The notes under the pieces are model-generated. The model was not told where the DNA came from and did no database searches. It worked only from the letters and a program-made list of their open reading frames with translations. The translations under genes and the position numbers were made by a program. A stretch of DNA of 64,000 nt from a virus (Duplodnaviria > Heunggongvirae > Uroviricota > Caudoviricetes). Where the stretch lies: IMG/VR virus record IMGVR_UViG_3300031760_000013, positions 2,458 through 66,457 of that record; one strand, written 5' to 3'. How positions within the stretch are numbered: the first letter of the stretch is position 1; the number at the start of each line of letters is the position of its first letter. Below, piece by piece: positions 1,985-59,291 of this stretch.

Positions 1985-2177
1985 TCAATTCCCTTTCAAA
2001 TTCCTGCATTGCATAATTCTCAAATTTTTCTGAGTTTTTGTATTTGGTTGCCTGTTTTAGTCCACAGAATGGGCAGTAATCAAATAGTTGCTGCCCACAT
2101 TCCGTGTCCCAATAAGCTTCGTGATGACAACGGGAACATTCCCAAAAGTCATGATGCTTCGGATTCGTTCGCCACAT
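1977..2177 (-). CDS. small zinc-ribbon protein
   Basis: 66 aa with four Cys/His in a C..C..H...C..C arrangement. Confidence 0.35.
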   Translation of the reverse strand: MWRTNPKHHDFWECSRCHHEAYWDTECGQQLFDYCPFCGLKQATKYKNSEKFENYAMQEFERELNG

Positions 2178-23418: not shown

Positions 23419-24372
23419 TTATTCCATGTGTACAATTTTCCAACGTTCGTAATCTCTTTTAAAATCCTCAACAATTTGTCGTTTTTTGGAATCGATCGTG
23501 TTTCGACCAGAGCCAAGCTTATAAACTTTCCCGTCTATATACTCTGCGGCAGCATCTTCAAAACATGGCGCTTTACCCATTGCCTCAGAAATATAAGTCC
23601 TATAAAAAAGCCCGGACAGCCACACTCTGTAGTAACTTAACGATTGCAGTTCGCCCATTTCCTTGAACGCCATGCGTTTTCTCTTTGAAAACTCAACGCG
23701 AAAAGCCCTGATTGTTGGTATAGCTTTAACACCACTTAGTAGAAACGTCCTATCAAAACGCTGTACTACTATACGTTTTGAATAGTTTGGGTGTGCATAC
23801 ACAAAAGAATCAAGTGTCGATGCAGCGGAAAAGTCCGCAAAAGCCTCCTTATATATTCTGTATGATTTGTTGTCAAAACAAACAGCCATGTTTTTCAAGT
23901 CAACATCTGTGCGTCTGACTAATACCGTTTTTTCTTCTTTTACACCAGAGAATGCCAGCCAATAGTAACATCTGTATATACAATCCACAGTTTGCTCATC
24001 GGATGGCTTAAAGTAAAAATCTAAATATTTCTTCAGCTCTTCTGGGGTTGAGACAGTTAAGCGACGCATCTCGTCTGACATCTCATTGCTGTACATAATA
24101 CTTTCTGCGCATGTTTTTACACCAATATTCTTTTCGCACCAGCGGAGATAATCTTTCAGTGTGCTTAACACGCCCATTGTTGATCTAGACCTCAATGTGT
24201 AAGCACTATCCACCACCGCGCTCAGCTCCTGTTTGCTCATTTCGTAAAGGTCTCGTCCGGCTGCATCTTCATATTTCCCAAACGACTCAAACAAACGATT
24301 GAGATTCCTTGCGGTCATTTTGTTGTTTGTTTTCTGTTCGATATACCTACTCTTGAGTTGAATATTGTACAT
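23419..24372 (-). CDS. hypothetical protein, paralog of 50187..51137 (N-terminal region resembles a recombinase core-binding/SAM-like DNA-binding domain)
   Basis: 317 aa. Same length and parallel motifs as the 316-aa protein at 50187..51137 (LKDYLRWCEKNIG versus VNSYLKWCDRNRV). Strong AGGAGG RBS. Confidence 0.45.
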   Translation of the reverse strand: MYNIQLKSRYIEQKTNNKMTARNLNRLFESFGKYEDAAGRDLYEMSKQELSAVVDSAYTLRSRSTMGVLSTLKDYLRWCEKNIGVKTCAESIMYSNEMSDEMRRLTVSTPEELKKYLDFYFKPSDEQTVDCIYRCYYWLAFSGVKEEKTVLVRRTDVDLKNMAVCFDNKSYRIYKEAFADFSAASTLDSFVYAHPNYSKRIVVQRFDRTFLLSGVKAIPTIRAFRVEFSKRKRMAFKEMGELQSLSYYRVWLSGLFYRTYISEAMGKAPCFEDAAAEYIDGKVYKLGSGRNTIDSKKRQIVEDFKRDYERWKIVHME

Positions 24373-24399: not shown

Positions 24400-24834
24400 T
24401 CAAACAGTCGCCGAGTTAAGCGCACTTGCCTTCTTCCAGATAGAATACACGAGATGAGGCGGAATAAACGAGATCATAGATGTAGCCAGAATATAAGCCT
24501 CTGCAATATTTTTCATGTAGGAACTTGGCATTGTCGTAATATAACGTCCTAGCTTGTTTTTAGATATGCATTCTGGGTTCTCGCAAAGAACCATGCTGTC
24601 TTTCTTCAACCCGGAATCGCTGGCTTTTACAACAACATGCGTCGGTTGTGAAGACTTCTTGATCTGGCTTGTGAGCGGTAACACAATAACATTAGGACTA
24701 TGCAAATTCCCAAGGTTATTTTGGATTATCAGGCCAGGACGAATCCCGCTCTGTTCGCTGCCATTACCGGCAAATGTGATCATATAAACATCACCAATAC
24801 GCGGAGTGTGGCCGTCTTTGTTTTGGAAGTTCAC
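24400..24834 (-). CDS. MazF/PemK-family endoribonuclease toxin-like protein
   Basis: 144 aa. GDVYMITFAGNGSEQSGIRPGLII...NVIVLPLTSQ...PTHVVV reproduces the PemK/MazF fold motifs, including the conserved Arg (SEQSGIRP) and Thr (PLTSQ). No antitoxin-sized ORF is adjacent. Confidence 0.65.
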   Translation of the reverse strand: MNFQNKDGHTPRIGDVYMITFAGNGSEQSGIRPGLIIQNNLGNLHSPNVIVLPLTSQIKKSSQPTHVVVKASDSGLKKDSMVLCENPECISKNKLGRYITTMPSSYMKNIAEAYILATSMISFIPPHLVYSIWKKASALNSATV

Positions 24835-24938: not shown

Positions 24939-26078
24939 TTAAGCGATCCCCATTAGATTTTTCGCTTGTTCAGCGATGCAATGATACGCTGTTGTTATAT
25001 CCCCGATAGTATTATTAGCAGAGACAGATACACGGATTGTGTTTCTCGCATCGTCGCCAGAGACCCCAATCGCTGTAAGGACATGGCTTGGCGTAGAGCT
25101 GCGTGAGTTACATGCGCTACCTGCTGATATTTGAACTTTATCACCAATGGCGAGAATAAGTGTTTGCGCGTCAACATTTGGAATTGTTACGCTGATAATC
25201 TTCTCTCCGTAATCAAAGCAATTAAATATAGCAGATGGTAGCTCTGTTGCGAGCCCTTCCTTGAAAGCCCTGCGCAGAGACGATACTCTAACTCGCGCCT
25301 CACTTAATCTTTCCGCTGTTAATTTACATGCTTCGCCAAATCCTACTATGCCAGCGACATTTTCTGTCCCACCTCTATACCCAAACTCTTGATAAGCACC
25401 GCCGAAAATTATTGGTGAAAGCACCTGTTTCCTTTTAGCGAAAATAGCCCCAACACCTTTCGGGCCATTAATTTTATGGGAAGAAATCGTAGCGAAATCA
25501 CATCCAATTTGTGTCATGTTCAAATCGACGACACCAGCCGCCTGAACACAGTCTGTATGAAACAATACATCATGGTGCCTGCATACGTTACTGATATCAA
25601 CGACCGGGTTTTTTACCCCCGTCTCGTTGTTCATGTACATAACGGAGACTAAGCCAGTACCATTATTAATACCGTTTTCGATTTCTTCCCTTTGAATAAT
25701 GCAGTTCTTGTCTGGGCTCGCTAAATCAGCGGTGAAGCCTTCAAATAACATTAAATTTTTTATTGAGTTAAGGACAGAATCATGTTCAATTTTTGTAGAT
25801 AGTATATGGGTTTTGCCAGAAATCTTCAAATAATGTTTCAACCCATTAAATACAAGGCTATTGCCCTCGCTCCCACCAGATGTAAAGATTATCTGGCTTC
25901 TGTCGCAATGAAGTAAATCAGCTACATTTTGCCTCGCTTCATTAATGGCATCTCTTGCGAAAATTCCTGCTGAATAAATTGAACCTGGGTTTGCGAAATT
26001 ATCTTTTAAAAACGGGAGCATCGCTTCAAACACACGTTCATCCATCTGTGTAGTAGAAGCATTGTCAAGATAAATCAT
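24939..26078 (-). CDS. cysteine desulfurase (class V aminotransferase; NifS/IscS-like)
   Basis: 379 aa. N-terminus MIYLDNASTTQMDERVFEAM. PLP-lysine context ISSHKINGPKG. Active-site cysteine loop SAGSACNS. Confidence 0.8.
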   Translation of the reverse strand: MIYLDNASTTQMDERVFEAMLPFLKDNFANPGSIYSAGIFARDAINEARQNVADLLHCDRSQIIFTSGGSEGNSLVFNGLKHYLKISGKTHILSTKIEHDSVLNSIKNLMLFEGFTADLASPDKNCIIQREEIENGINNGTGLVSVMYMNNETGVKNPVVDISNVCRHHDVLFHTDCVQAAGVVDLNMTQIGCDFATISSHKINGPKGVGAIFAKRKQVLSPIIFGGAYQEFGYRGGTENVAGIVGFGEACKLTAERLSEARVRVSSLRRAFKEGLATELPSAIFNCFDYGEKIISVTIPNVDAQTLILAIGDKVQISAGSACNSRSSTPSHVLTAIGVSGDDARNTIRVSVSANNTIGDITTAYHCIAEQAKNLMGIA

Positions 26079-26998: not shown

Positions 26999-27808
26999 TC
27001 AAACCACTAACTGCAGGCTTTCCCCTATATCGCAATTAATATAATTATTTTTCCCACCAAGGTTTAACCCAAGATATGCATTTTCAATCTCCTCTTGTGT
27101 TAATCCAATATAGTCTAGCGTAATTACAAGAGACGAATGCCCAAGCATTTTTGATAGTAACATCAATTTCCGTGGGTCATTGTTGCACATTGCCATTTGA
27201 TGATAAGCAAAAGTTTTTCGTAAAGTGTGTGTACTCATATGAATTCCAAGGTGTAGGTCTTTGTTAATACCCTTTAATAGATATTCGAAAGAATTCCTAT
27301 GCATTGGTTTCCCAGCATCTTTCCCATGGTTCGACTCTGATTGGAACATATAATCGTCCAGTTTAACGCCATCCGAGTGTTTTAGAAATAATGTCACTGC
27401 CTCAATAACAGCGGAATTAATTGTAATATAACGATTCTTTTTATGTTTTCTGGTATTTTTCGTCTTCTTTTCAACAATTGGGAACGTTCTTTTAAAGGTG
27501 AAATCGTCGTTGATTAAATCGCAGAAACGCAATACGCGTAAATCGCTTATACGTAAACCGAAATTAATCCCAACTATAAATATCATATTATCCCTATATC
27601 GATTATTGGCTATCAGATATTGGGATATCTTCTCTATATCTTCAATGCGTTTAATTGGTTCGGCAGCATGCTCATCTACAACATCCCGTTCAACTTTTGT
27701 TTCTGCTTCAGAAATAAGACCGGCGACAGAATTGTTACTCGCCCGCCACAAATCGGACGGAATGACCTTTTCTTTCTTCTTAAAATCAGCATAAATAATT
27801 TCCGCCAT
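26999..27808 (-). CDS. tyrosine recombinase (phage integrase family)
   Basis: 269 aa. HTLRKTFAYH (HxxR) and LGHSSLVITLDYIG (catalytic Tyr context) are near the C-terminus. Confidence 0.7.
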   Translation of the reverse strand: MAEIIYADFKKKEKVIPSDLWRASNNSVAGLISEAETKVERDVVDEHAAEPIKRIEDIEKISQYLIANNRYRDNMIFIVGINFGLRISDLRVLRFCDLINDDFTFKRTFPIVEKKTKNTRKHKKNRYITINSAVIEAVTLFLKHSDGVKLDDYMFQSESNHGKDAGKPMHRNSFEYLLKGINKDLHLGIHMSTHTLRKTFAYHQMAMCNNDPRKLMLLSKMLGHSSLVITLDYIGLTQEEIENAYLGLNLGGKNNYINCDIGESLQLVV

Positions 27809-38798: not shown

Positions 38799-38874
38799 TG
38801 GTACCGCTGGATGGAGTTGAACCATCGTCTTTGGCTTATAAGGCCACTGCTTCTAACCATTGAGCTACAGCGGC
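38799..38874 (-). tRNA. tRNA (anticodon loop CUUAUAA, so anticodon UAU, Ile-type), CCA encoded
   Basis: Minus-strand sequence GCCGCUGUAGCUCAAUGGUUAGAAGCAGUGGCCUUAUAAGCCAAAGACGAUGGUUCAACUCCAUCCAGCGGUACCA folds as a cloverleaf: a 7-bp acceptor stem with one G-U, a GG D-loop, T-arm GAUGG/UUCAACU/CCAUC and 3' CCA. The D-stem has one irregularity. Confidence 0.55.
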
Positions 38875-39300: not shown

Positions 39301-39609
39301 TTACCCACAAAGTAATTCACCCCACAAACTGTTAAATTCATCATCACTGATATCTGGTGGCGGTGAGCACGCTAACTCACTGAACATTTCGTCTGTCCAT
39401 CTGTAATTCCACATATCTACGCTTTCCCCGGAAGATACAAGATATTGGCCATTTAAATAATCAGAGATTTGAACTACTTTTCCTCTAAGCTTGCACATAT
39501 CATCAGTCGCACTATTACTAGCGCTATGGTCTTCCATGCTGTAATGCATACCTTCTATCAAGTCTTCTCTTACAATGACTCTATCGCCTATTTGGTATTT
39601 CATATTCAC
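39301..39609 (-). CDS. small protein, GDRV-barrel/WTDEM family
   Basis: 102 aa; GDRVIVREDL, RWTDEMF and C-terminal DDEFNSLWGEL. Confidence 0.45.
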   Translation of the reverse strand: MNMKYQIGDRVIVREDLIEGMHYSMEDHSASNSATDDMCKLRGKVVQISDYLNGQYLVSSGESVDMWNYRWTDEMFSELACSPPPDISDDEFNSLWGELLCG

Positions 39610-39610
39610 C

Positions 39611-39799
39611 TCATATCCATGCGTCTACTAACGCACCGAGCTGTTTGTTCAGCTCCGCATAATTCCTTCCGTATATTACGGCTTCATCAGAACCCACCTC
39701 ACAAAGTTTATTGTCGAGCCGTACGTTGCGATTGGAAAGAAAATCCTCGAAGACATCAATGATCTGCCCGACAAATTCTTTTCTATCAACTGTGCTCAA
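39611..39799 (-). CDS. hypothetical protein
   Basis: 62 aa ORF. Confidence 0.3.
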   Translation of the reverse strand: MSTVDRKEFVGQIIDVFEDFLSNRNVRLDNKLCEVGSDEAVIYGRNYAELNKQLGALVDAWI

Positions 39800-39812
39800 T
39801 AAATCCTCACTT

Positions 39813-40313
39813 TCATTCCGTCAGAAATTCAAAGAATTCCTCATCTGAGAACACATCTTTAATCTCGGAATCGATAAGCCGGATACTGTCCCATGGTACA
39901 TTCCAACCATGTTTAACATCGCATTCTCCACCGCAAGAATGCCCGTTGATGTTTCTATCCCATCTTACGCCAATCCATTCCCCGCGGTCTTCGCTTTCAA
40001 GATAAACAATTGTTCCGCGGTCTCCGGCCCGTAAGTGTCCACCATCTAATTTAATTAAGCCAGAATACTCTACTCTGTCCCCAACTCTGAAGTCGTCGCA
40101 TATTCCCCTAAGTGAGTCTGGATGGAGGTACCAGCCGTGCTCGTCGTTACACCGGCCATCACATGTATGCCCTCGATGTATCGCCATGTCGAATTCGACT
40201 CCGATTGAGCCGCCACCAAAGGATACACTTACGACTGTTCCTCGATATCCCATTTGGATATCGCCAATTTTTACATCGCTGATGTATTCTACACGATCCC
40301 CAAGATCAAACAT
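39813..40313 (-). CDS. tandem-duplicated GDRV/HGW-domain protein with C-terminal SDEEFFEFL tail
   Basis: 166 aa. Two internal repeats, each GDRVEY...G.RGT.V...GV.....GH.C.G.C...HGW..P.DS. Confidence 0.45.
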   Translation of the reverse strand: MFDLGDRVEYISDVKIGDIQMGYRGTVVSVSFGGGSIGVEFDMAIHRGHTCDGRCNDEHGWYLHPDSLRGICDDFRVGDRVEYSGLIKLDGGHLRAGDRGTIVYLESEDRGEWIGVRWDRNINGHSCGGECDVKHGWNVPWDSIRLIDSEIKDVFSDEEFFEFLTE

Positions 40314-40321
40314 AATTTACC

Positions 40322-40639
40322 TCACAAACCTAAGAACAAGGTAAACTCATCGTCAGAGCATGCATCAAATTCTTCGGATTCCTGCAGTTTTTCCACGTTA
40401 TATTTGTTCGTATTCCAACCATGGCCTACTTCGCATGCCCCATCATTGGAATGCCCGTTCGGCAGTGCCTCATCCCATGCAATGTAAACCCATGTAATAT
40501 CTTCTGGGCAATCTTGCAAAACCGTCCCGGTCATACCGTACTTTAAATGACCGTTATCTTCGGCACGTTCGCTTACAAATATTATCCGGTCGCCCTTACG
40601 TAAAACTTGGCGTTCTCTATCATATTTACACATCTTCAT
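40322..40639 (-). CDS. GDRV/HGW-domain protein with C-terminal DDEFTLFLGL tail
   Basis: 105 aa; KGDRIIFV...GHSNDGACEVGHGWN; single copy of the repeat found in 39813..40313. Confidence 0.45.
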   Translation of the reverse strand: MKMCKYDRERQVLRKGDRIIFVSERAEDNGHLKYGMTGTVLQDCPEDITWVYIAWDEALPNGHSNDGACEVGHGWNTNKYNVEKLQESEEFDACSDDEFTLFLGL

Positions 40640-40741: not shown

Positions 40742-40966
40742 TCACAAACAGAACTGTGGATTACACCCTTCACCCTGATGTGGGCAACTCTTACAGGTAG
40801 AACCTTGGGTTATATCATTTACCTGTGAAGCAAAACCTTCTCTCAATTCTTCTTCTATGTTTTCCCGGTTCTCGTCAGTTCTTAAATCAACCACTGTGAT
40901 ACCAAGCATTTTCCAAATCTCTTCAAAAGTCCCTTCAACATAGACACCCTTAATTTTTGCTTTCAT
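40742..40966 (-). CDS. small protein with C-terminal Cys cluster
   Basis: 74 aa; CKSCPHQGEGCNPQFC; 9 nt downstream of the RT gene. Confidence 0.35.
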   Translation of the reverse strand: MKAKIKGVYVEGTFEEIWKMLGITVVDLRTDENRENIEEELREGFASQVNDITQGSTCKSCPHQGEGCNPQFCL

Positions 40967-40974
40967 ATTAACCC

Positions 40975-42129
40975 CTATCCAGCAAGATCCTCTTTAATCA
41001 GTTTCTTGATGCTCCCGCAACCAAGCTTCTCACCAAGATAACCAACCAGCTCGTCAATTTTTCTGCCTTCAACCATCTTGTAATAATTATAGAGCCCGTT
41101 CATAACTTGGATATCCTCCAAATCCCACGGATTCCCGTTCTGCCTATCTTTCACATAGTTTGTGAGCATCGCCTGAAATCTGCGCTTAGTTTTATGCCCA
41201 ATAGTTATTTCGTTCTGCCCGTTAAGACAGCATCCAAGCAGAAAGTTATGTCCAGAAGAAGAACCGTACCTTGTCTTTGCGGTATTGAGCTGGAACGGCG
41301 CATTAAATGTTGCAAGTGAGCTGATAATTTCCTGCTCGATTTTTCTGAAGTCGAAATCATACCGAGACGAAATGATAAAGTCATCGGCATATCTCGTATA
41401 CACGAAGCGCTGCTTATCGAAATCCCTGAGTTCCTTCGATAGCTTATAGTCGATTGGAATCATCATGATGTTGGTTATCAGCGGAGAGATCGGAGTGCCC
41501 TGCGGAAGCCCGCCATTCAGAATTGCTAACTCAAGAGCAGATTCCAAAGCACTTCTTCCTCTTTCGGTCTTAACCACTTCAGAAAACGGGTATACCATAG
41601 AGAACATCTGCATGATAAATTCCAGAGTTGTGCTACCAAAGAAGTCATGCAGGTCATATTTACAAAACCACTTGCTCTCATTTGACTGATGACGCTTCAC
41701 CGCATCAAGCGTAGACCGTTTCTTGATATACGCAAAAGCCGATGTGTGATACAGCGCCTTACAATCATTCTCAAAAATACCTTTCAGTGTTCTAAGTGCG
41801 CTCATCAAGTCGTCTTCCGGCGCATTAATCTCACGAAGGCCGCCAGATTTTTTAGGAATATAAAACTTATAGTATGATTCCTGCCTTGGCTTAGATTTAA
41901 TTCTAGCCACTACATCTGATGTGTTAAAAGCTTCGAGCTTGAGGATGATGCGTCCAATGCTTATACCAAGTTTTCTTTCTACCCTATCAGACACATACTC
42001 CATTTCATAAGTACGTGTGTTTGTAAGATTCTCATTGATTACGCCTGGCGTAGTCGATGTCTGGAAGAGAAACTCCTCCAAAGTCATCTGGTGATACGTC
42101 GGCGGCATCTTGACAACGACATATACCAT
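40975..42129 (-). CDS. reverse transcriptase (retron-type, no maturase/endonuclease domains)
   Basis: 384 aa. RT motifs YIPKKSGGLREI (motifs 1-2), LPQGTPISPLITNIMM (motif 4, QGxxxSP) and YTRYADDFII (motif 5, YADD). GGGAGG RBS. Confidence 0.85.
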   Translation of the reverse strand: MVYVVVKMPPTYHQMTLEEFLFQTSTTPGVINENLTNTRTYEMEYVSDRVERKLGISIGRIILKLEAFNTSDVVARIKSKPRQESYYKFYIPKKSGGLREINAPEDDLMSALRTLKGIFENDCKALYHTSAFAYIKKRSTLDAVKRHQSNESKWFCKYDLHDFFGSTTLEFIMQMFSMVYPFSEVVKTERGRSALESALELAILNGGLPQGTPISPLITNIMMIPIDYKLSKELRDFDKQRFVYTRYADDFIISSRYDFDFRKIEQEIISSLATFNAPFQLNTAKTRYGSSSGHNFLLGCCLNGQNEITIGHKTKRRFQAMLTNYVKDRQNGNPWDLEDIQVMNGLYNYYKMVEGRKIDELVGYLGEKLGCGSIKKLIKEDLAG

Positions 42130-42157
42130 CTTATGTTCCTCCCTATTAAACTGTTAT

Positions 42158-42480
42158 ATAACTGTAATCTACGTGTGTGTGCCTGCAGGAACCGGGACCG
42201 TCTTCCTGGATCTGGAGTTGTAGTCTGCTGGCGAGCTCGCCATTACTGAGTAGCTTGTCATCGAGAAAGGAGCCTTGTTTTCCAAGATTTCGTATTTCTG
42301 ATGGCTAAGATTTTGCTACTAGGTCTTGATAAGACTCGATGACTGTGACAGCACGAGCAGCTGCTGGGTCATCGCTGCGGCGGAAGGCGTGCCCAGCCAT
42401 CGTTCACGCCTCTGCTCAAATCGTTACTTCCGCTTACAGCAAGAAGCACCATATTACTATGGTCATTGCATTACAGTTAT
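42158..42480 (-). ncRNA. candidate retron msr/msd-like non-coding RNA upstream of the RT
   Basis: A 323-nt non-coding region bounded by 11-bp inverted repeats ataactgtaat (42158-42168) and attacagttat (42470-42480). The downstream repeat lies 28 nt from the RT start, the a1/a2 geometry expected of a retron. The interior has a perfect palindrome tggcgagctcgcca and GC-rich pseudoknot-like stems. Confidence 0.35.
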
Positions 42481-42497
42481 GAAATTAGATTTCTAAA

Positions 42498-42752
42498 TTA
42501 TTCGTTTTCCAAAATCTCAAGCAGATGTTTCCCGTGATCGGTGATTTTCATATGCTTGAGCATAGATTCGCAGTGCTCGCTCTTGAAGAATTCTTTGATT
42601 TCCTTTTTGGAATAACCCCATTCATCGCGAGTTATCCGCGAATCCTTTCCCCTATTGCAAAGGTCGCGGTAATCGTCAGCTGCCTTCTGCAAAATTGCCA
42701 TGGCAAGCTGAGCTGCACCGCGACCCCGCAACACCTCTAACGATTCTGGCAT
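42498..42752 (-). CDS. hypothetical protein
   Basis: 84 aa; between the E1-like gene and the RT leader. Confidence 0.35.
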   Translation of the reverse strand: MPESLEVLRGRGAAQLAMAILQKAADDYRDLCNRGKDSRITRDEWGYSKKEIKEFFKSEHCESMLKHMKITDHGKHLLEILENE

Positions 42753-43423
42753 CAGAATACGTCCAGAATCCCACTAAAGCCATCGATCTGGCCGAACTTC
42801 CAAATACCTTCACCCTTAACAAACTTTATGTAATTGTTCACACACATCGCACAGATGAGGCGGACAGTTGTCACAACTCCGAGTGTAATTCCGCACGCGC
42901 TCACTGGAGTCTCGTTTTTTGCCTCTTCGTGTGAAAACTGCATAGAGTTCAGAAGGTTCTGGCGTGACTGGTAATCACTCCAGTCTGCCCCATACATCTG
43001 CGCTCCCGTTAGAGCCGTTCTCACGTCGAACACCGCTTTTAAGAAAGGGTGATCCATGTGCTGCTCAACAAATTTCCTGCGCAGTTCTATATTGTCCGGG
43101 CAAAGGAACACATACCCCGATAGCATTTTCCCCTGCCACCCTTCCGGTTTGATCTTGATCGAATCTTTTGCTTCCGGATTAATTTCCAGAATAAGATCCC
43201 GCAGCGCCTCGACCTTAAGCCTTCCGATATCCTGCTGTCTGAACATCTGGTTCACGATGTTGTGCTTTTCGACCTTGTCGAAATCATAAAGCGTCATCTT
43301 TGTAATGCCGCACCGAGCAAGATTTTCCGCGATTGTCGAGCCGACTGACCCGCAGCCGATTATATGAATCATCGCGTCATCTTTTTCCGGCTGGAAGAAT
43401 TCATAGCTTTTACTGAGATCCAT
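42752..43423 (-). CDS. ThiF/MoeB-family E1-like adenylyltransferase (minimal adenylation domain)
   Basis: 223 aa. HIIGCGSVGSTIAENLARCGITKMTLYDFDKVEKHNIVNQMF reproduces the E1 Rossmann GxGxxG plus the D.D.VE..N(L)xRQ nucleotide-binding signature. Confidence 0.6.
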   Translation of the reverse strand: MDLSKSYEFFQPEKDDAMIHIIGCGSVGSTIAENLARCGITKMTLYDFDKVEKHNIVNQMFRQQDIGRLKVEALRDLILEINPEAKDSIKIKPEGWQGKMLSGYVFLCPDNIELRRKFVEQHMDHPFLKAVFDVRTALTGAQMYGADWSDYQSRQNLLNSMQFSHEEAKNETPVSACGITLGVVTTVRLICAMCVNNYIKFVKGEGIWKFGQIDGFSGILDVF

Positions 43424-43424
43424 A

Positions 43425-43916
43425 TTACCCTCCGATCATTTCATTTGCTTCACGCAAACCATTACCAAGAGCTTCGAGCTCTTCCTCCGTAAACCTCTGC
43501 ACACAATCCCTGCTTTCGGAAAGCATATCCATCACCGTGCATTCTTCTTCCTCGACCTCGAAAGGATCGTACGGTTCAAATGGCTCTTCCTCTTCGTCAT
43601 CTTCCCAGGCGTCGTTTTCATCCGCCCAATCACGAACTTCGCCTTTCCAGTAATCAAAATCCGCCGGACGCCATTCGCCATAATATTCGTCATACTCATA
43701 GTAATCATAACCACTATTGTCACGATACCTATCAAGTATATTGAACAAATCTTGCCACGTGTTATCTCTGGCAAGATCGACAAGACTTTCATCGATAATT
43801 TCGTCACGCGAATCTGCAGAGATTACATCCTCAAGAAGATAGCAGCCGACATCGTCGCAGAACTGATTCAGGTCATAGAAATCATTAACGTCATCGATAA
43901 ATGTAGAACGATTCAT
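43425..43916 (-). CDS. highly acidic protein ending in Gly-Gly (candidate ubiquitin-like/sulfur-carrier-like partner of the E1-like enzyme)
   Basis: 163 aa with very Asp/Glu/Tyr-rich repeats (DYYEYDEYYGEW, EDDEEEEPFEPYDPFEVEEEE). C-terminus ...NEMIGG followed by the stop codon. AGGAGG RBS. Beta-grasp fold not verifiable by eye. Confidence 0.4.
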   Translation of the reverse strand: MNRSTFIDDVNDFYDLNQFCDDVGCYLLEDVISADSRDEIIDESLVDLARDNTWQDLFNILDRYRDNSGYDYYEYDEYYGEWRPADFDYWKGEVRDWADENDAWEDDEEEEPFEPYDPFEVEEEECTVMDMLSESRDCVQRFTEEELEALGNGLREANEMIGG

Positions 43917-43928
43917 ATTTTCCTCCTA

Positions 43929-44933
43929 TCAATAATAGAACCCGTCACTATACCCGAACGGGCCATACGGGTCGTCCATTTCATCGGCATAGATACCGGA
44001 TGCCCTGTATGGCGATCTGTCGGATTTTTTCTTCTCTTTTTTCTCGGAACGTTTGAATTTCTTCCCGAGATGTTTTTTCTTTGACTCGGGGTACTCCTTC
44101 TTTTCCTGCTTGTCCACTTGTGCCACCTGTACCTGCTTAGGTTGTTCAACCTTTGCGATCGGGGCCACAGGCGCAGGTTTTACCTGTTCTGGTTTCTGGG
44201 TATAATTATTTCTATATACGGACTGCAATTGTTCTTGATTTAAGTTGTACGCAGACCCGTTGTAATTCCCGTACTGCTGGTATGCCGGTTTATTTTCCGT
44301 GATCATTCCCTTTGCTTCACGCAAGAACTTTTCAACTCCGCATTCATCTTCGATCACGTTAACCGTCACGTCGGAAGTATCAAACATGACATTCTTTTTC
44401 ATGTCATAGATCTTATACATACATTCCCCGCGCTTGTTATAGATCATGAATATGTAAAACATCGTATCATCGAGTTGGCCGAGAAGCTTTTCATACAAAT
44501 CATTATCAGTTACCGATGGCGTAACTCCCATATTTACATGGGAATGCCCCTGCATTCTGATATTGTTGAATACCTCATCTTCCTGCTTCATCAACCATTC
44601 CTGGTACTTAATCTGATCTGTGTTGACATTCGCCGCGGAAACTACCTGCGGGTATACCAGAATGTCTGTGATATAATACTCGTCTTTCGTCTCATCTTCG
44701 CCACGATAAGCAAGCCCATGCCAACCAACTTCTTTATCACATTCCCTGATCAATGACGTCATTTTCAGCCATGCAATTTCGGTGAAATAAACCGTACATG
44801 GACGTTTTGTCGCCATCAATGCTCGATGAAAATCGATCTTGCCATCCATCAGCTTTGCAGATTTCAGGATACTTTCAAATTCCTGTCTCCACTGGCTGAT
44901 ATTATCCTCTGTTATCTTAATTGCTTTCGCCAT
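43929..44933 (-). CDS. JAMM/MPN+ family metalloprotease (JAB deubiquitinase-like) with Lys-rich C-terminal tail
   Basis: 334 aa. Exact JAMM motif HSHVNMGVTPSVTD (HxHx7Sx2D) with an upstream Glu (EVGWHG). C-terminal third is low-complexity and Lys/Pro-rich. Confidence 0.65.
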   Translation of the reverse strand: MAKAIKITEDNISQWRQEFESILKSAKLMDGKIDFHRALMATKRPCTVYFTEIAWLKMTSLIRECDKEVGWHGLAYRGEDETKDEYYITDILVYPQVVSAANVNTDQIKYQEWLMKQEDEVFNNIRMQGHSHVNMGVTPSVTDNDLYEKLLGQLDDTMFYIFMIYNKRGECMYKIYDMKKNVMFDTSDVTVNVIEDECGVEKFLREAKGMITENKPAYQQYGNYNGSAYNLNQEQLQSVYRNNYTQKPEQVKPAPVAPIAKVEQPKQVQVAQVDKQEKKEYPESKKKHLGKKFKRSEKKEKKKSDRSPYRASGIYADEMDDPYGPFGYSDGFYY

Positions 44934-46404
44934 TTGCAGTTGCCTCCCCTTCCTGCAGTTTCAGATATTCGATTGCTTCCTTCGGTTTTACTACGCTGCC
45001 ATCCGGCAGTTCAAAGCATTTATTGTTCGTGCTGTAATCGCTTATGCCATAAATCCTCTTGAAGAATTCACGCATAACGGTACCGTCCCCAAAGTTCAAA
45101 CTCTTGCATGATGCGATGCACTGTTCAATCGCGCCGATATAATCCCTATTTCTAAGGAACATATTAATCTGACGTTCGTAATTCCCGAGACAACGATATG
45201 CGTCAATGTGAGTATTCGGCATATAATCTCGGAATTCCGAGCCATACTCATACCCACCCATCGCACTGACATTACCTTCAAGACGGAAATGATATGCTGC
45301 ACAGAATCTGATCTTTATTGTCTGATCAATAAACACTGCACGCATCAGCTTTTCCATGTCTTCTTCCGGAATAATGTTGTTACACCCACGATCGTTCGGG
45401 CGATACATGAGACTGCGCTTATTCCCGATCATGCTCTCAGCAGCATCTTCGTCGAAATACTGGAGATAATCTTTCACAACGAATTCCATCACTGTATCAT
45501 CTACCTTCATTAGTGACAGTTTCCTATTGTTGATAAAGTACTGCATGATCTCAGATTCTTCATCGCCGCTTGCAAGCTTTGTTTCAATCCCCAGAAGAAC
45601 GGTTTCCTGGTCTCTTCTCTTACGCAGATATTCCCCAATTTCTTCGTTCAATCTTTCGATCGTCCTATCGATCTCACCGATATTATTAGCGACTTCCGTC
45701 CTGCGGAGACGCTCATATTTCAACTCAAACCCTCCAAGCATTCCCTTAATGCCTGCGGTTCTGAAATCGTAATGAGATGCGATCTGATCAACACACTCGA
45801 GATATCTGTCCGGCGTTTTCTCTCTGAGAGAATGAATCAGCGACATTTCCTCATCGGATACACCATTTTTCGGATCAAAATACCAAGGTAAGAACGCAAA
45901 TACACCACACTGCAGATAATGCATTCTGCGTGTGTCCATATTATCCGTGAAGATGTAAACGCTGCGTCGCTCAACATTCACATAACACAGAACTTTGAAA
46001 ACTTTCCGGTAAAAATCCGTGACCTTTGTTACGCGATGCCATCCCGCACACATGCTCTCGAGGTTGTTTTCGATCGCGTGGAATACCTTTTCCGACGCTT
46101 CGTCTGAACCAGTCGAGATGTTCTTAATAAACAGGATACCATCACCCATGCGATTAACATGAACACACTGATCGTTCGCAATAGTTTCCTCTGTCTTTGA
46201 CCGAACATCGCTTGGACGCATTGACTGTGAATAATACGAAAAAGTGAGGTTGTCATCCTCTCCCATTCTTGGCGCAACTAATGCACGCAATGTAGATATG
46301 AACGTGCTATCACCATTCACCATATCGCCCCAGATTTTCCCTCTGAAATACTCTTCCGCGAACGGTGTGGTCAGAGACGTTCCACGAATTAAGTCTCTAA
46401 ACAC
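44917..46404 (-). CDS. hypothetical protein (495 aa)
   Basis: Long ORF with no motif I can name. Confidence 0.45.
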   Translation of the reverse strand: MFRDLIRGTSLTTPFAEEYFRGKIWGDMVNGDSTFISTLRALVAPRMGEDDNLTFSYYSQSMRPSDVRSKTEETIANDQCVHVNRMGDGILFIKNISTGSDEASEKVFHAIENNLESMCAGWHRVTKVTDFYRKVFKVLCYVNVERRSVYIFTDNMDTRRMHYLQCGVFAFLPWYFDPKNGVSDEEMSLIHSLREKTPDRYLECVDQIASHYDFRTAGIKGMLGGFELKYERLRRTEVANNIGEIDRTIERLNEEIGEYLRKRRDQETVLLGIETKLASGDEESEIMQYFINNRKLSLMKVDDTVMEFVVKDYLQYFDEDAAESMIGNKRSLMYRPNDRGCNNIIPEEDMEKLMRAVFIDQTIKIRFCAAYHFRLEGNVSAMGGYEYGSEFRDYMPNTHIDAYRCLGNYERQINMFLRNRDYIGAIEQCIASCKSLNFGDGTVMREFFKRIYGISDYSTNNKCFELPDGSVVKPKEAIEYLKLQEGEATANGESN

Positions 46405-46617
46405 TTTTAAATCCTCCCTGATTTAATTTCCTTTTAGAGCCGATATCCGGAGTCGAACCGGACGGTATTTACCGTTCCTCACATCGGCATATAAAAACAA
46501 GTGGCGCGAAAGAAATCCCTTCATTATAGCGTGCCATCAAGCATGCCGGATTCCCAAGCGCCACTTGGAGTTACGATGTGTTATGATTTTCAAAGGCTCC
46601 AGTCGGAGCCTTATGTA

Positions 46618-46845
46618 TTATGCGTTATCCAGCTTCTGGACGTTGTACAGGAAGCCCTTTTCTGTGATGCCGAGCTGGCTGAATGTTTTATCCAGATCGC
46701 CGGGGCCGAGGGTTGCGCCGTCAAGAGTGGACATGCCGTGAGTATAATCAATGTCGTTCTGTTCGAAAACCTGACGCGGAGTTGCATCATCTTCAACGAT
46801 AACCGGAACACGCTTCACATTGTTACCTACAGTGATCTTAACCAT
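46618..46845 (-). CDS. hypothetical protein
   Basis: 76 aa from Met MVKITVG... with RBS AAAGGAGA; the longer track ORF (to 46914) lacks an RBS. Confidence 0.4.
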   Translation of the reverse strand: MVKITVGNNVKRVPVIVEDDATPRQVFEQNDIDYTHGMSTLDGATLGPGDLDKTFSQLGITEKGFLYNVQKLDNA

Positions 46846-46939
46846 TTTTATTTTCTCCTTTAATTCAATAAATATTTTTTTGTTTGAGATTTTGGGAAAC
46901 TGCGGGGCTGCCATTAATTTGACAGCCCCAAACTCAACA

Positions 46940-47341
46940 TCACTGAGTTACAGTAATGTTGCTGAGGATTGCGGCCTCTTCAGCCTCGATTTCCTCGAGA
47001 ATTCCGGGGATCTTTTCCTCGATCTTACCGAGGAGCAGGACAGCGGGACCGAACTTGTCAGCTACATACCCCTTGATATTTTCGGTTTCCACGCCATCAA
47101 GAGTAGTTGTGAGACATGCAAGACCTGCACCGTCACGGGTTTCCTTGCCGAACTCAACACCAGCGGAACGGATGCTACCAGCACCATTCGTCACACCGAC
47201 GCAGAAAATCGGTTCCTTGCCATCCTCACCGCCGAGAAGTGTGAGGGCTTTGGGGCGATACTTCTTTACCTTCTTGTAATCCGCCAGCTTAACGCTGGAA
47301 GTTACAACGACTGCATCCCCTGCGATCACGATTTTTGCCAT
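46940..47341 (-). CDS. hypothetical protein, likely highly expressed
   Basis: 133 aa; strong RBS AGGGAGAAAGAGG; GC-richer codon usage than the rest of the window. Confidence 0.45.
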   Translation of the reverse strand: MAKIVIAGDAVVVTSSVKLADYKKVKKYRPKALTLLGGEDGKEPIFCVGVTNGAGSIRSAGVEFGKETRDGAGLACLTTTLDGVETENIKGYVADKFGPAVLLLGKIEEKIPGILEEIEAEEAAILSNITVTQ

Positions 47342-47466: not shown

Positions 47467-48078
47467 TTATTCCGGCATATAAATCGGGTTATCCTCATCT
47501 TCATAATCCAGAAGCTCATAAGGATATTCCTCGTACGATTCAACGCCATTCTCATCAACCAGATACATCGGTCGATATATAGTCACATCCCATTTCCTGT
47601 ACATATATTCGAGAAAATGTTCCTTGCAATCTTGGAAGAATTTCTTCTTCCTGGCTGAATCGAAATCCCCCATGCTCTCATCAATTGTGAGATTTATGAA
47701 GTCATACAGCGCATAATCGAGATCTTCTTCACGCATCTCGATTTCCTCTTCTTGTGCCTCTTCCTCATCTTCTTCCTCGTCCTCTTCCGGCTCATCGTCC
47801 ATCGCGACTGCGGATTTCCCAGTCGCCCATCGATACATCGTTTTTGCGATATCCTCGCAATCCGCTGCATCAATGCACGTTTCCTCAAAAGCTGGTTCAC
47901 CGCCAACACACATGATGATGTCCGGCAGCTCGTCACCACTTTCCCCCACACTGGTGAGATAAATCACCACATCGCGCTCGATATCTTCAGCGATTTCCAT
48001 GAAATCCTTTTCGAGCTTTGCCTTTTCTTTCTGGAATAAATCCCAGATTTTATTAGCCTCAACGTTAATCCTCAGCAT
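47467..48078 (-). CDS. acidic protein (poly-Glu/Asp tract), paralog of 48274..48570
   Basis: 203 aa; DDEPEEDEEEDEEEAQEEEIE tract; C-terminal YEEYPYELLDYEDE resembles IEYIEYPYERLW of the neighbouring protein. Confidence 0.45.
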   Translation of the reverse strand: MLRINVEANKIWDLFQKEKAKLEKDFMEIAEDIERDVVIYLTSVGESGDELPDIIMCVGGEPAFEETCIDAADCEDIAKTMYRWATGKSAVAMDDEPEEDEEEDEEEAQEEEIEMREEDLDYALYDFINLTIDESMGDFDSARKKKFFQDCKEHFLEYMYRKWDVTIYRPMYLVDENGVESYEEYPYELLDYEDEDNPIYMPE

Positions 48079-56690: not shown

Positions 56691-59291
56691 ATGGGCTCAT
56701 CACAGATCCTTAGATGGATTGACGAGCTGAATGGCATCACTGATGCAGACCAGCGAGCGAGGGACATCCGAGCTGAGATTCAGAGACTACGCAAAGATGC
56801 AAACAGTTCGATTACCAGGCGAGAGATTCGAAGGTTGTATTCGCAGCTCGACTCAATCCAGTTCAAACCTGATTATATGTGCCTTGTGATAGATCGCGAA
56901 AAGGATTACCGGCGTGCATGCAAAGGTTTCTCAATAAATGGTATAAGCTACTCACGCCTTCTTGGTACTGCTGGTGGAATCAAGAACAGCACGATTGTCT
57001 TTGTAAGCGACCGCTATCACGATGAACTTGTCAGGCGTGTAGATAACGGTAGAGATATGTCGCAGGAAATAGTGCCAGCGAAACTGGAGGCTTACAAAGC
57101 TTTGGCGTGCAGCGCGTCCATACCGGTATCTATGCCAAAAGGGATACTTGTAGTACATGACGTTGAAACTACATTCACGGCTGACACAGTCTATCTGGAT
57201 GACGAGAATGATGGCGAGCCTGCAATGAAGTTTGTCCCGGACACAGAGATCACGATGGATGCTACGGACGGGTTCGGTTTAATGCTCCCCTCTCTTGCAG
57301 AACGGTGGAGTGAGGAGTTGCGGCTTGGATATACAATGTCAGGTTGTAACACAAGATTCTCGTTCGAAAAAGGTATGGTGTATGCGTTTGACTTCATAGA
57401 GTTCGCAGAGAATGTCGCGCACAAAAGTATTGTCAAGGATGTCTGGGGTAACGATGTAGATATCCACGAGGTGGAACTTATATTCACTGAGAGCATGCTT
57501 AAGCTCTGGAATGCTTATAAGAGTTGCGACGATTATCTTGAGAACTGTATGGAGAATGGGTACACAATCGGTATACCGAAAACATGTCCAGAGAAACTTG
57601 AGAAGACGAGAACGCTAAACTACCAGTTTATCCAGAGTTATCACTTAGACGACGATGATATTAACGAGCTGATAGCTCCAACTATAAATGAGATTGAAGA
57701 GGTACTGAAGGATGATTGGCGAAAGACAGTGTTGTTTTTACGCGGGGCTGGGTTAAATGAGAGCAATGTCGACTATATTGATAATGGTTTTATCAAAGCA
57801 ATGATGATAGACAGTAGAATTGCTGACGACCCATATGTAAAAAACGCTGTGTATCAGCTGATAAAGAACAGAATCAATGAAGCAAAGATTGGGGTGTTGA
57901 ATGTACACGGGAACTACTCAATGATATCTGGTGACCCGTATACATTGTGTCAAGGAATATTTGGCCTGCCTGTCACAGGTTTATTGAAGGCTGGCGAAAT
58001 ATATAATAAGTTTTGGGTGGATTCTGCTGCAGAGAAGCTTGTTTGTTTCCGAGCTCCTATGAGTACCCACGAAAATATACGTGTGGTAAAAATAAATAGA
58101 GGTGACGATGCGCGGCACTGGTACCAGTATATGCAGACATGTACAGTGCTAAATTCTTGGGACACCATAACAATGGCACTTAACGGCGCGGATTACGATG
58201 GTGACCTTGTCATGCTTTCCGATAACGACGTACTAATCCGAAAGCATCGCGACCTCCCGACCATTATGTGTGTGCAAAGGAAAGCAAAGAAGATGGTCCC
58301 GACAGAACAGGATATTATAAACTCTAACATTGCAAGCTTTGGGAACGAGATCGGGCAAGTAACGAATCGTACGACATCAATGTATGAGGTGCAATCGCAT
58401 TTTGAACCAGACAGCGATGAGTATAGGACATTGAGCTATAGGATTATGTGCGGGCAACTCATTCAACAGAATGTTATTGATAAAACAAAAGGTATTGTTG
58501 CAAAGCCAATGCCAAAGACATGGTATGACAGACATTCTGTAAATCTGATCAGCGACGACGACGAAAGACGTTTTTACAGAAGGATTGTTGCAGACAGGAA
58601 GCCGGCGTTCATGCGGTATATATATCCAGAGCTTATGCGGCAATATAACACATACATAACGAACACGAATAAGAATTCGCTCCGTGAGTTCCAACTGACA
58701 ATTGACGAATTGAAGAGCATCCCATACGATGACCTTACAAGCAGACAGCTCGAGTTTCTACGGTACTATGATATGTATATGCCTGTTGGTACAGGCGATT
58801 GCGTTATGAATACTATTTGCAGGAAGGTCGAACAGAAGTTTGATGGATTTGTTGGCGCTGCATCAAAGAACTCCGAGTTTGATTATACGATTATGAAGAG
58901 CGGCACAAGTTATTTGCAGTGGCAGTATTATGCGATAGAGCGATTGCTCGATGATTATAATAAGAGACTACGCGACTACTCTATATTTTCAATGTATGAG
59001 CGAGAAGATAAGGCAGATAAAATTGATTCTATAAAAGTGATGAATGCACAGTTTGCCCGTGACTGTATGGACATATGCACGAATAGTAAACAGATGTGTG
59101 ACATTTTACTTGATCTTTGTTATAAGAAATCGAAAACGAAAAAATTTGTCTGGGATATATGCGGAGACCAGATAATAGAGAATCTGTTGGAAAAGAATAA
59201 CTGGATTATATCGTATCCGGAGTTAGATGAAAATGGTGAGTTGGCATATGGCGGAGAGCATTTCTCCATGCGAGAAAAGAAGGAGGTCTGA
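56691..59291 (+). CDS. YonO-like single-subunit two-barrel RNA polymerase (putative)
   Basis: 866 aa. Contains ALNGADYDGDLVML. DYDGD is the DxDGD metal-binding loop of double-psi beta-barrel RNA polymerases (compare NADFDGD of the multisubunit beta-prime subunit; shared by YonO of SPbeta and the eukaryotic RNAi polymerases). Confidence 0.55.
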   Translation: MGSSQILRWIDELNGITDADQRARDIRAEIQRLRKDANSSITRREIRRLYSQLDSIQFKPDYMCLVIDREKDYRRACKGFSINGISYSRLLGTAGGIKNSTIVFVSDRYHDELVRRVDNGRDMSQEIVPAKLEAYKALACSASIPVSMPKGILVVHDVETTFTADTVYLDDENDGEPAMKFVPDTEITMDATDGFGLMLPSLAERWSEELRLGYTMSGCNTRFSFEKGMVYAFDFIEFAENVAHKSIVKDVWGNDVDIHEVELIFTESMLKLWNAYKSCDDYLENCMENGYTIGIPKTCPEKLEKTRTLNYQFIQSYHLDDDDINELIAPTINEIEEVLKDDWRKTVLFLRGAGLNESNVDYIDNGFIKAMMIDSRIADDPYVKNAVYQLIKNRINEAKIGVLNVHGNYSMISGDPYTLCQGIFGLPVTGLLKAGEIYNKFWVDSAAEKLVCFRAPMSTHENIRVVKINRGDDARHWYQYMQTCTVLNSWDTITMALNGADYDGDLVMLSDNDVLIRKHRDLPTIMCVQRKAKKMVPTEQDIINSNIASFGNEIGQVTNRTTSMYEVQSHFEPDSDEYRTLSYRIMCGQLIQQNVIDKTKGIVAKPMPKTWYDRHSVNLISDDDERRFYRRIVADRKPAFMRYIYPELMRQYNTYITNTNKNSLREFQLTIDELKSIPYDDLTSRQLEFLRYYDMYMPVGTGDCVMNTICRKVEQKFDGFVGAASKNSEFDYTIMKSGTSYLQWQYYAIERLLDDYNKRLRDYSIFSMYEREDKADKIDSIKVMNAQFARDCMDICTNSKQMCDILLDLCYKKSKTKKFVWDICGDQIIENLLEKNNWIISYPELDENGELAYGGEHFSMREKKEV

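Follow-up and report, generated by a model that had tools for sequence, protein, structure and literature searches.

The window analysed here, a stretch of 64,000 nucleotides (nt) from IMG/VR virus record IMGVR_UViG_3300031760_000013 (positions 2,458 to 66,457), is derived from a gut or rumen phage. A conserved module on its minus strand (47341..40975) encodes, in this order, the 133-amino-acid (aa) protein p133, a 75-aa ubiquitin-like protein (Ubl), the 495-aa protein p495, a JAB peptidase, an enzyme resembling ubiquitin-activating (E1) enzymes and a retron-type reverse transcriptase (RT). The same order is found in ~170 related phage or MAG (metagenome-assembled genome) loci and is kept down to 31% JAB identity. 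We propose, with a probability of about 0.6 for the package as a whole, that these phages share a conserved operon for ubiquitin-like conjugation, to which the region belongs and in which the genes for Ubl, a conjugating (E2) enzyme, a deubiquitinase (DUB) and E1 follow one another in the gene order of the Bil systems.

The conserved module and its ubiquitin-like protein

The window is phage-like in content, encoding a DnaE-type polymerase, DnaB, NrdD, RtcB, ERF, integrases and a polymerase of the YonO/crAss-type RdRP family. The source contig (ENA ERZ27256908 k141_4604274, 113 kb) was also run through a separate, independent gene caller, which returned the same products of 495, 334, 163, 223, 84 and 384 aa. 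Among these are the three consecutive minus-strand open reading frames (ORFs) singled out by the first-pass annotation, encoding the JAB peptidase, an acidic protein and the E1-like enzyme, and its general idea that the peptidase and the E1-like enzyme are parts of a prokaryotic ubiquitin-like system carried by a phage holds. The genes lie close together, with p495 and JAB sharing 17 nt; the JAB and acidic genes are separated by 12 nt and the acidic and E1 genes by 1 nt, and E1 overlaps an 84-aa ORF by 1 nt.

Related loci were collected with two of the proteins. The E1 protein retrieved 23 loci from IMG/VR and the faecal phage contig MT835544 (tblastn, GenBank phages), while a JAB profile found 374 relatives in IMG/VR (80 were retained) together with 69 loci from genomes and MAGs, mostly of Clostridia. 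By their MAG bins, candidate hosts are Oscillospiraceae, Ruminococcus and Lachnospiraceae. A near-identity DNA search of GenBank phages with 40900-46500 gave no match, and tRNA-Ile was the single Rfam match over the whole window. Pfam, NCBIfam, PHROGs and PADLOC gave no match for the acidic 163-aa protein, p495, p133 or Ubl, and no description of the module was found in the literature searched on phage-encoded Ubl, E1 or JAB proteins, on crAss-like phages with ThiF or on retrons with ThiF or JAB.

The Ubl gene (46618..46845, minus strand) starts with an ATG at 46845, 8 nt past an AAAGGAG ribosome-binding site. Its 75-aa product ends ...QKLDNA, and database homologues are 75-77 aa long. From an alignment of 49 sequences, AlphaFold2 (AF2) modelled a beta-beta-alpha-beta-beta-beta beta-grasp with a flexible tail (predicted local distance difference test, pLDDT, 90.4). 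Almost all of the 50 PDB matches listed by Foldseek for this model are ubiquitin, NEDD8, SUMO or UBL domains (TM 0.52-0.67, probability 1.0), the top ubiquitin, NEDD8 and SUMO matches lying at TM ~0.6-0.66, while sequence methods (Pfam and a PDB profile search) gave nothing beyond chance. Judged by the modelled fold, the 75-aa protein appears to be a true Ubl, and it lies outside the region (42752-44933) covered by the first-pass annotation.

A Ubl profile search over 1.84 billion representatives yielded 794 family members, and the termini of the top 150 were analysed. The C-terminal consensus is K-x-D-N-A. Past this motif, homologues continue with nothing, with 1-3 residues, with another Ubl copy or with p133 fused in frame. 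Solo proteins make up 102 of the 150; the terminal motif could be placed in 91 of these, 68 ending exactly at x-N-A and 23 carrying 1-3 extra residues, and in the homologue P0004 the tail reaches up to ~10 residues. A further 34 are in-frame fusions to p133 with the junction exactly after KADNA, and two are head-to-tail di-Ubls, P0211 (...RDNA-SETS-M...RDNA) and P0242 (...GDGA-M...GDGAAK). G, S, C or A may stand at position 74, and rare homologues have GG or GA in the place of N-A, as in KAD followed by GGIH (one locus homologue) and in GDGA.

From the sequences compared, this behaviour of the terminus reads as the pattern of a ubiquitin precursor. It resembles the overhangs documented for BilA: BilA homologues carry 2-9 residues past the reactive residue, which are taken off by the JAB DUB (10.1101/2023.09.04.556158), and E. 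aridi BilA ends Gly97-Ala98, the Ala being cut off by the JAB DUB (PMC10557695). In the Ubl of the window the reactive residue would be either Ala75 or Asn74.

A stable hairpin (46593-46612) lies directly after the Ubl stop codon. Between Ubl and p495 there is a tRNA-like remnant (46430-46480, minus strand; GCCGATG...TCCGGTTCGACTCCGGATATCGGC) that was not called by ARAGORN. Relatives carry an intact tRNA gene at the same spot, tRNA-Leu(TAA) in loci L004, L049, L107 and L111, tRNA-Lys in L025 and tRNA-Leu(CAA) in L016.

The enzymes of the module and the partner protein p133

The JAB/MPN+ (JAMM) metallopeptidase is a 334-aa protein (43929..44933, minus strand) with a low-complexity Lys- and Tyr/Gly-rich tail. 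The exact HxHx7Sx2D motif reported for it was confirmed as HSHVNMGVTPSVTD, and this is the sole match to the pattern in the six frames of the 64-kb window, where 0.19 are expected. Residues E68, H130, S131, H132, S140 and D143 are 99-100% conserved in 141 unique homologues. Similarity to described families is weak: the PADLOC JAB model matched the protein at E=0.0023, and Pfam Prok-JAB gave weak matches in 5 of 20 homologues (best E 0.0027). The 334-aa protein itself had no match in Pfam and no sequence match in PDB, and PDB searches by sequence or profile returned chance or coiled-coil matches only. The motif GHSHxNM of the family recurs in gp77 of crAss001 and in a protein of an Allochromatium prophage, both adjoining an E1 of the same subfamily as that of the window.

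The E1-like adenylation enzyme (42752..43423, minus strand) is minimal, with 223 aa and one ThiF domain. Its assignment to the ThiF/MoeB type was borne out by Pfam (ThiF, 81.9 bits, cut-off 28.1; 5e-23), and when the ORF was checked for membership of a non-E1 Rossmann family, dehydrogenase families all stayed below Pfam cut-offs. The first-pass annotation had given its signature as GxGxxG with a second motif ending in RQ; the glycine motif (GCGSVG) and the second motif, DFDKVEKHNIVNQ, are present, but the last dipeptide is NQ. The nearest solved relatives are UBA5, the active adenylation domain of Uba1, MoeB, TcdA, MccB, Cap2 and ThiF. The best NCBIfam match was ThiF (4e-22), with 6A-MBL cap2_3 at 2e-19, all under equivalog cut-offs, and PADLOC gave Cap2 'E1-E2' at 1.3e-17. 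These Cap2 and 6A-MBL matches are limited to the N-terminal third of the enzyme (residues 14-89) and are far under family cut-offs. In 128 homologues, G23, G25, G28, D47, D49, N55, Q59, K70, D110, R115, R135 and C177 are conserved to at least 99%. C177, which sits in SACG and is conserved to 100%, would by its position be the counterpart of ThiF C184, MoeB C187 and the E1 cysteine of Cap2. The enzyme is without a separate Cys domain, CxxC zinc motifs or a rhodanese domain.

Two described gene sets were considered for the E1 and JAB genes and dropped. Of the models for the PRTRC cassette, PRTRC_ThiF alone gave a hit, and at 25.8 bits it fell short of the cut-off (144.75). Against the lambda tail-assembly I/K Ubl-JAB pair speak the lack of an NlpC domain and the neighbouring genes, which are of replication/early type and not a tail module.

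No E2 had been evident to the first-pass annotation. p495 (44917..46404, minus strand), encoded directly upstream of JAB, is a candidate for this role, and the assignment stays at that level. The AF2 model of p495, built from 60 sequences (pLDDT 88.4), shows two alpha/beta domains, one N-terminal and one C-terminal, with a helix of 54 residues (226-279) between them. The C-terminal domain is composed of a helix, two strands, a two-helix insert, two strands, a loop and three helices, an order of elements that, in the model, is that of the UBC fold of E2 enzymes. The loop, P396-N397-T-H399-IDAYR-C405-L-G407, follows the four-strand meander and precedes the three helices. H399 and C405 are conserved to 100% in 142 homologues, in which only four positions of p495 reach 95%. 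The modelled loop fits a (H)PN-type loop with an invariant Cys ~8-10 residues on, making C405 the candidate catalytic Cys. The Asn-to-Cys spacing of 8 is that of UbcH5.

Database comparison of p495 gave little. Foldseek of the model against PDB found nothing below E 0.2, and Pfam and PDB profile searches with the full-length protein and the C-terminal domain returned chance or coiled-coil matches only. Alignment of both domains by hhalign with UbcH5B, Ubc13 and Ubc9 (approximate sequences) stayed below 1% probability; the N-terminal domain was aligned in a UBC-like order in these runs, likewise below 1%. We consider the chance that p495 is an E2 to be about even. Either way, the invariant His and Cys point to some form of cysteine-based catalysis.

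p133 (46940..47341, minus strand) has invariant K27, F64 and E108 and no conserved Cys. It had no match in Pfam, PHROGs or PDB and gave no MoaE, ThiG or CysM signal. The gene is found upstream of Ubl in 138 of ~160 loci, and 7 loci have the fused form alone. p133 (P) and Ubl (U) are also duplicated together, as separate genes in the order P, U, P, U in L118 and L122 and as P, UP, UP, U in L016, where UP denotes a fusion.

Taken as one system, these components suggest the following course. In loci where Ubl carries a tail, is repeated in tandem or is fused to p133, JAB would cut after the conserved ...D-N-A; the Ubl of the window already ends at this point. A dimer of E1 may then adenylate the C-terminal carboxylate of Ubl and take the protein onto Cys177. 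From there Ubl would be passed to Cys405 of p495 and then onto a target lysine, and JAB would reverse the modification. Because p133 is fused or co-duplicated with Ubl, this protein, with its invariant Lys27, would be the most obvious target candidate. The modification might serve a function in the phage cycle, counter-defence or exclusion.

The acidic protein, the retron-like element and other neighbours

The first-pass annotation had taken the 163-aa protein encoded between JAB and E1 (43425..43916, minus strand) as the candidate Ubl or carrier, since it ends in Gly-Gly (...EMIGG). Its length, its terminus and its strongly acidic nature were reproduced: D and E make up 32.5% of the residues, 53 against 11 K and R. 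Of the 92 window ORFs with 100 aa or more, it is also the only one terminating in GG. The expectation per window is about 0.23, however, so that a terminal GG alone is too common to carry meaning. Homologues of the protein were drawn from a search of 5.8 billion proteins and from the first and second locus sets. Seven were found in the protein search, and GG (...EMIGG) was confined to two of them with 85-88% identity; the termini of the next-closest, ...RELIAE or ...MELVAE, align with it. None of the more distant homologues ends in GG (0/5 from the database, 0/11 from the first loci and 0/41 from the second). Even in L004, where E1 is 91% identical, the acidic protein ends ...MELVAE.

The gene itself is a lineage-variable insert. 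In the 80 loci kept from IMG/VR, a gene of the acidic family is found between JAB and E1 in ~22 and 3' of RT in ~20; in the remaining loci it is missing, with JAB abutting E1. Conservation in the family is concentrated in about the first 100 aa, including a GYDYY motif, and the C-terminal third varies in length and sequence. In the 163-aa protein ~37 residues lie beyond the acidic linker, too few for a beta-grasp domain. Comparison of the acidic family with the Ubl family by hhalign gave 0.1% probability, and all comparisons with the Ubl, p203, p133 and p84 families were below 1%. That the 163-aa protein is nevertheless the Ubl or a sulfur carrier, a substrate that the neighbouring E1 activates and JAB trims or deconjugates, could be argued from the position of its gene between the two enzymes and from the low prior (~0.4%) for one particular neighbour to end in GG. 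This is hardly credible, as the terminus is not shared beyond the two close homologues, most related loci lack the gene or carry it elsewhere yet retain Ubl, JAB and E1, the conserved part is confined to about the first 100 aa with too short a stretch after the linker, similarity to the Ubl family is at 0.1%, and the operon already holds a bona fide beta-grasp protein. By these sequence comparisons the terminal GG appears fortuitous and the 163-aa protein an accessory protein other than the Ubl. The case shows that a terminal Gly-Gly beside an E1 is insufficient to call a Ubl; comparison with relatives overturned the call.

Two other small genes accompany the module. The usual upstream neighbour of p133 encodes the acidic p203 (47467..48078, minus strand; DDEPEEDEEEDEEE run), which is unrelated to the 163-aa protein (hhalign 0.6%). 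It is present in most closer loci and lost in more divergent ones that keep p133 through RT, and its link to the system is uncertain. The 84-aa ORF after E1 (42498..42752, minus strand; phrog_7024 at 3e-7, weak PADLOC WH_III-A) is a variable accessory gene found in few related loci only.

RT (40975..42129, minus strand) matches Pfam RVT_1 at 1.7e-18, NCBIfam retron St85 RT at 9e-49 (166 bits, under the cut-off of 235) and PADLOC RT_II-A at 6.5e-46. It is preceded by a 368-nt non-coding region (42130..42497, minus strand) of retron-like organization, with an 11-nt long-range inverted repeat, ATAACTGTAAT ... ATTACAGTTAT, and no Rfam family. An equivalent repeat, scored as 8-13 nt with arms ~280-340 nt apart and the 3' one lying 7-28 nt ahead of the start of RT, was found in 78% of 91 distinct loci as compared to 25% of shuffles, and the arm variants across loci are compensatory. 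RT lies downstream of E1 in nearly all of the loci, at a distance of 6-18 nt in some divergent ones. Distant phages with an E1-JAB pair have no RT. As RT is constant near E1 in the lineage yet missing from these phages, a functional link is possible.

Downstream of RT lie small paralogues with Xrn1-type SH3-like domains (39301-40639, minus strand), which form arrays of at least five in related phages (L001 9380-12214). The tRNA-Ile gene, with anticodon TAT, is located at 38799-38874 (minus strand), and the corresponding region of relatives contains as many as 11 tRNA genes. Elsewhere in the window, the cysteine desulfurase noted by the first-pass annotation at 24939..26078 was verified as a class-V aminotransferase of the cysteine-desulfurase family (232.8 bits), and no IscU or sulfur-carrier gene was found when the genes around it were examined. 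A MazF/PemK-family toxin gene (24400-24834, minus strand) lies directly downstream of this gene, which is also on the minus strand, and integrase-like genes are found nearby (23419-24372, 26999-27808). A gene of the xanthine/uracil permease family (2149-3417, minus strand; 170 bits) is perhaps an auxiliary metabolic gene, and an 866-aa protein (56691-59291, plus strand) belongs to Pfam RdRP (PF05183, 3e-15), a family that includes YonO-type and crAss-type phage RNA polymerases.

Known systems and alternative explanations

The closest likeness is to BilABCD, the bacterial ISG15-like (type I and II Bil) ubiquitination operons, in which Ubl, E2, DUB and E1 are encoded in this order (10.1101/2023.09.04.556158). 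The gene order is the same here, and three of the four functions are represented, the E2 being a candidate. The differences are considerable. BilABCD is a bacterial defence operon, whereas the module is a conserved phage core; the Ubl is a single beta-grasp with an Asn-Ala end where Bil has a Gly end; the E2 candidate is large, with 495 aa, a coiled coil, two domains and a conserved His before the Cys; and p133 and the retron-like RT are extra constant partners. BilD combines inactive and active adenylation domains with a mobile Cys domain (PMC10557695). No Bil model was matched by sequence. Since it has neither the BilD-type E1 architecture nor the C-terminal glycine, the module is not filed as a member of Bil. 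Compared to Cap2/Cap3 of type II CBASS (anti-phage signalling based on cyclic oligonucleotides) and to 6A-MBL cap2_3, E1 and the E2-like protein are encoded here by separate genes and the substrate is, by its model, a true beta-grasp; no cGAS/DncV-like nucleotidyltransferase (CD-NTase) was matched by PADLOC or Pfam among nine neighbouring proteins.

The module has in common with archaeal SAMP/UbaA/HvJAMM1, Thermus TtuB/TtuC, MoaD-MoaE, CysO/Mec+ and QbsE/QbsD that a beta-grasp protein of small size is combined with an E1 of the MoeB/ThiF type and a JAMM peptidase, and JAMM peptidases are known to trim C-terminal extensions or cut linear fusions, for example SAMP1/MoaD-MoaE (PMC4443979). These carrier systems differ in their Gly-Gly ends, sulfur chemistry, rhodanese domains and MoaE, ThiG or CysM partners, whereas the module includes an E2-like Cys protein. 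The tandem Ubl genes and the fusion exactly at the terminal motif also recall eukaryotic polyubiquitin and ubiquitin-ribosomal protein fusions. No sequence relationship exists between these and the phage proteins, which have p133 as fusion partner and D-N-A as the motif, and for which cleavage is suggested by analogy.

The E1 subfamily extends to distant phages. crAss001 gp76, which has a 160-aa N-terminal extension, and the ThiF of Xanthomonas jumbo phage PhiXhv-12 belong to it (profile 218-220 bits), and crAss001 gp77, a 'metalloprotease', is of the same JAB family, with a ~445-aa protein upstream of JAB in the same order. ThiF genes are also present in Flavobacterium phages. When profiles were compared with ORFs of crAss001 and the Xanthomonas phage, E1 matched strongly and JAB weakly, and those of Ubl, p133, p495 and RT had no significant match. 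The loci concerned, L002 (crAss001 gp75-gp79), L003 (PhiXhv-12) and L174 (a prophage region of Allochromatium humboldtianum), are replication/nucleotide-metabolism modules, and in L002 and L174 the JAB gene stands beside E1. In unrelated phages these genes are labelled 'thiamine biosynthesis protein' or 'metalloprotease', and none of the papers searched connects ThiF with crAss-like phages. The E1-JAB pair shared by crAss001 and Allochromatium indicates that the pair is widespread in phages and that its annotation is misleading.

Several points weigh against conjugation by this module. Ubl ends in Asn-Ala, the Gly or Gly-Gly end that was looked for being absent, and we know of no E1 that activates an Asn-Ala C-terminus; a few Ubl homologues stop at K-A-D. 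The E1 is a single adenylation domain of 223 aa, without the inactive adenylation domain, mobile Cys domain or zinc site of BilD. The loci with the full set all come from one phage lineage, and the conserved order could reflect descent and not function.

The same Ubl terminus bears on two improbable alternatives. One, akin to the sulfur-carrier reading that the first-pass annotation had found to fit the gene composition equally, is that Ubl is a sulfur carrier: E1 would thiocarboxylate the 75-aa protein with sulfur from the desulfurase to thiolate a cofactor, tRNA or nucleotide, JAB would trim the C-terminus as in QbsD/QbsE or Mec+/CysO, and p133 would act like MoaE for MoaD. A gene of the desulfurase family is indeed present, the E1 is of the minimal ThiF/MoeB type with ThiF as its best NCBIfam match, Ubl-p133 fusions recall the MoaD-MoaE fusions cut by a JAMM protease (PMC4443979), and these phages have tRNA genes and RtcB. 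The alternative is weakened by the Asn-Ala end, as known carriers all end in Gly-Gly, and by the position of the desulfurase gene 17 kb off among MazF-toxin, integrase-like and ERF genes. Moreover, E1 has no rhodanese domain and p133 no MoaE, ThiG or CysM signal, none of ThiG, MoaE, CysM or rhodanese was found among the module neighbours by Pfam and NCBIfam, the operon includes p495, a protein with invariant Cys and His and matches to E2-like folds, and tandem Ubl repeats are typical of modifiers and not of carriers. About equally doubtful is a role outside protein conjugation, in which the beta-grasp protein would be a domain or partner of p133 and E1 would perform MccB-, PaaA- or TcdA-like chemistry on a C-terminal Asn, a small molecule or a nucleic acid, possibly tied to the DNA product of RT. 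MccB acts on a C-terminal Asn, and the penultimate Asn is the best conserved residue of the Ubl tail. MccB, PaaA and TcdA are among the solved E1 relatives, RT is a near-obligatory neighbour that abuts E1 in some loci, and E1-JAB pairs occur in the replication/nucleotide-metabolism modules of crAss001, Xanthomonas jumbo phages and the Allochromatium prophage. Set against this, position 74 tolerates G, S, C or A and some Ubls end at K-A-D, the tails, tandem copies and JAB suit a processed modifier, and the distant phages have E1-JAB without RT.

A different question is the purpose of the module. Ubl cassette and retron could together be a defence island of a temperate phage that protects the lysogen, a possibility less probable than a core role and yet stronger than the two preceding alternatives; it bears solely on what the module is for and can be combined with the proposed biochemistry. 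Anti-phage systems are known both of the Bil-type Ubl kind and among retrons (10.1101/2023.09.04.556158; PADLOC matches), tyrosine recombinases and a MazF toxin are encoded in the window, and some relatives lie within large bacterial contigs. Such islands vary among related phages, whereas this module is fixed in place in essentially every member of the deep lineage, with identities down to ~30%. Its presence in essentially all members favours a core role. A more specific and speculative form of the conjugation reading, which we regard as unlikely, is that a six-gene core unit of this deep Clostridia-infecting phage lineage couples a complete Ubl machine to p133 and the retron-type RT. Ubl would then be put on p133, on RT or on its DNA-protein product, and would control reverse transcription or disarm host immunity. 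If true, ubiquitin-like tagging would for the first time be tied to reverse transcription, and a complete prokaryotic Ubl cascade would for the first time be known from a virus.

To our knowledge, the complete prokaryotic ubiquitin-like cascades described so far are anti-phage systems of bacteria (Bil, Bub and Cap2/3 of CBASS). The fusions and tandem repeats of Ubl provide a ready in vitro assay for JAB, and the non-glycine end of Ubl would test the assumption that E1 enzymes require a C-terminal glycine. The unusually large E2 candidate and the retron-type RT as a near-obligatory neighbour are features worth attention. If the conjugation reading is correct, the module would place the same ubiquitin-like logic on the side of the virus, as a conserved core module of a large group of uncultured phages.

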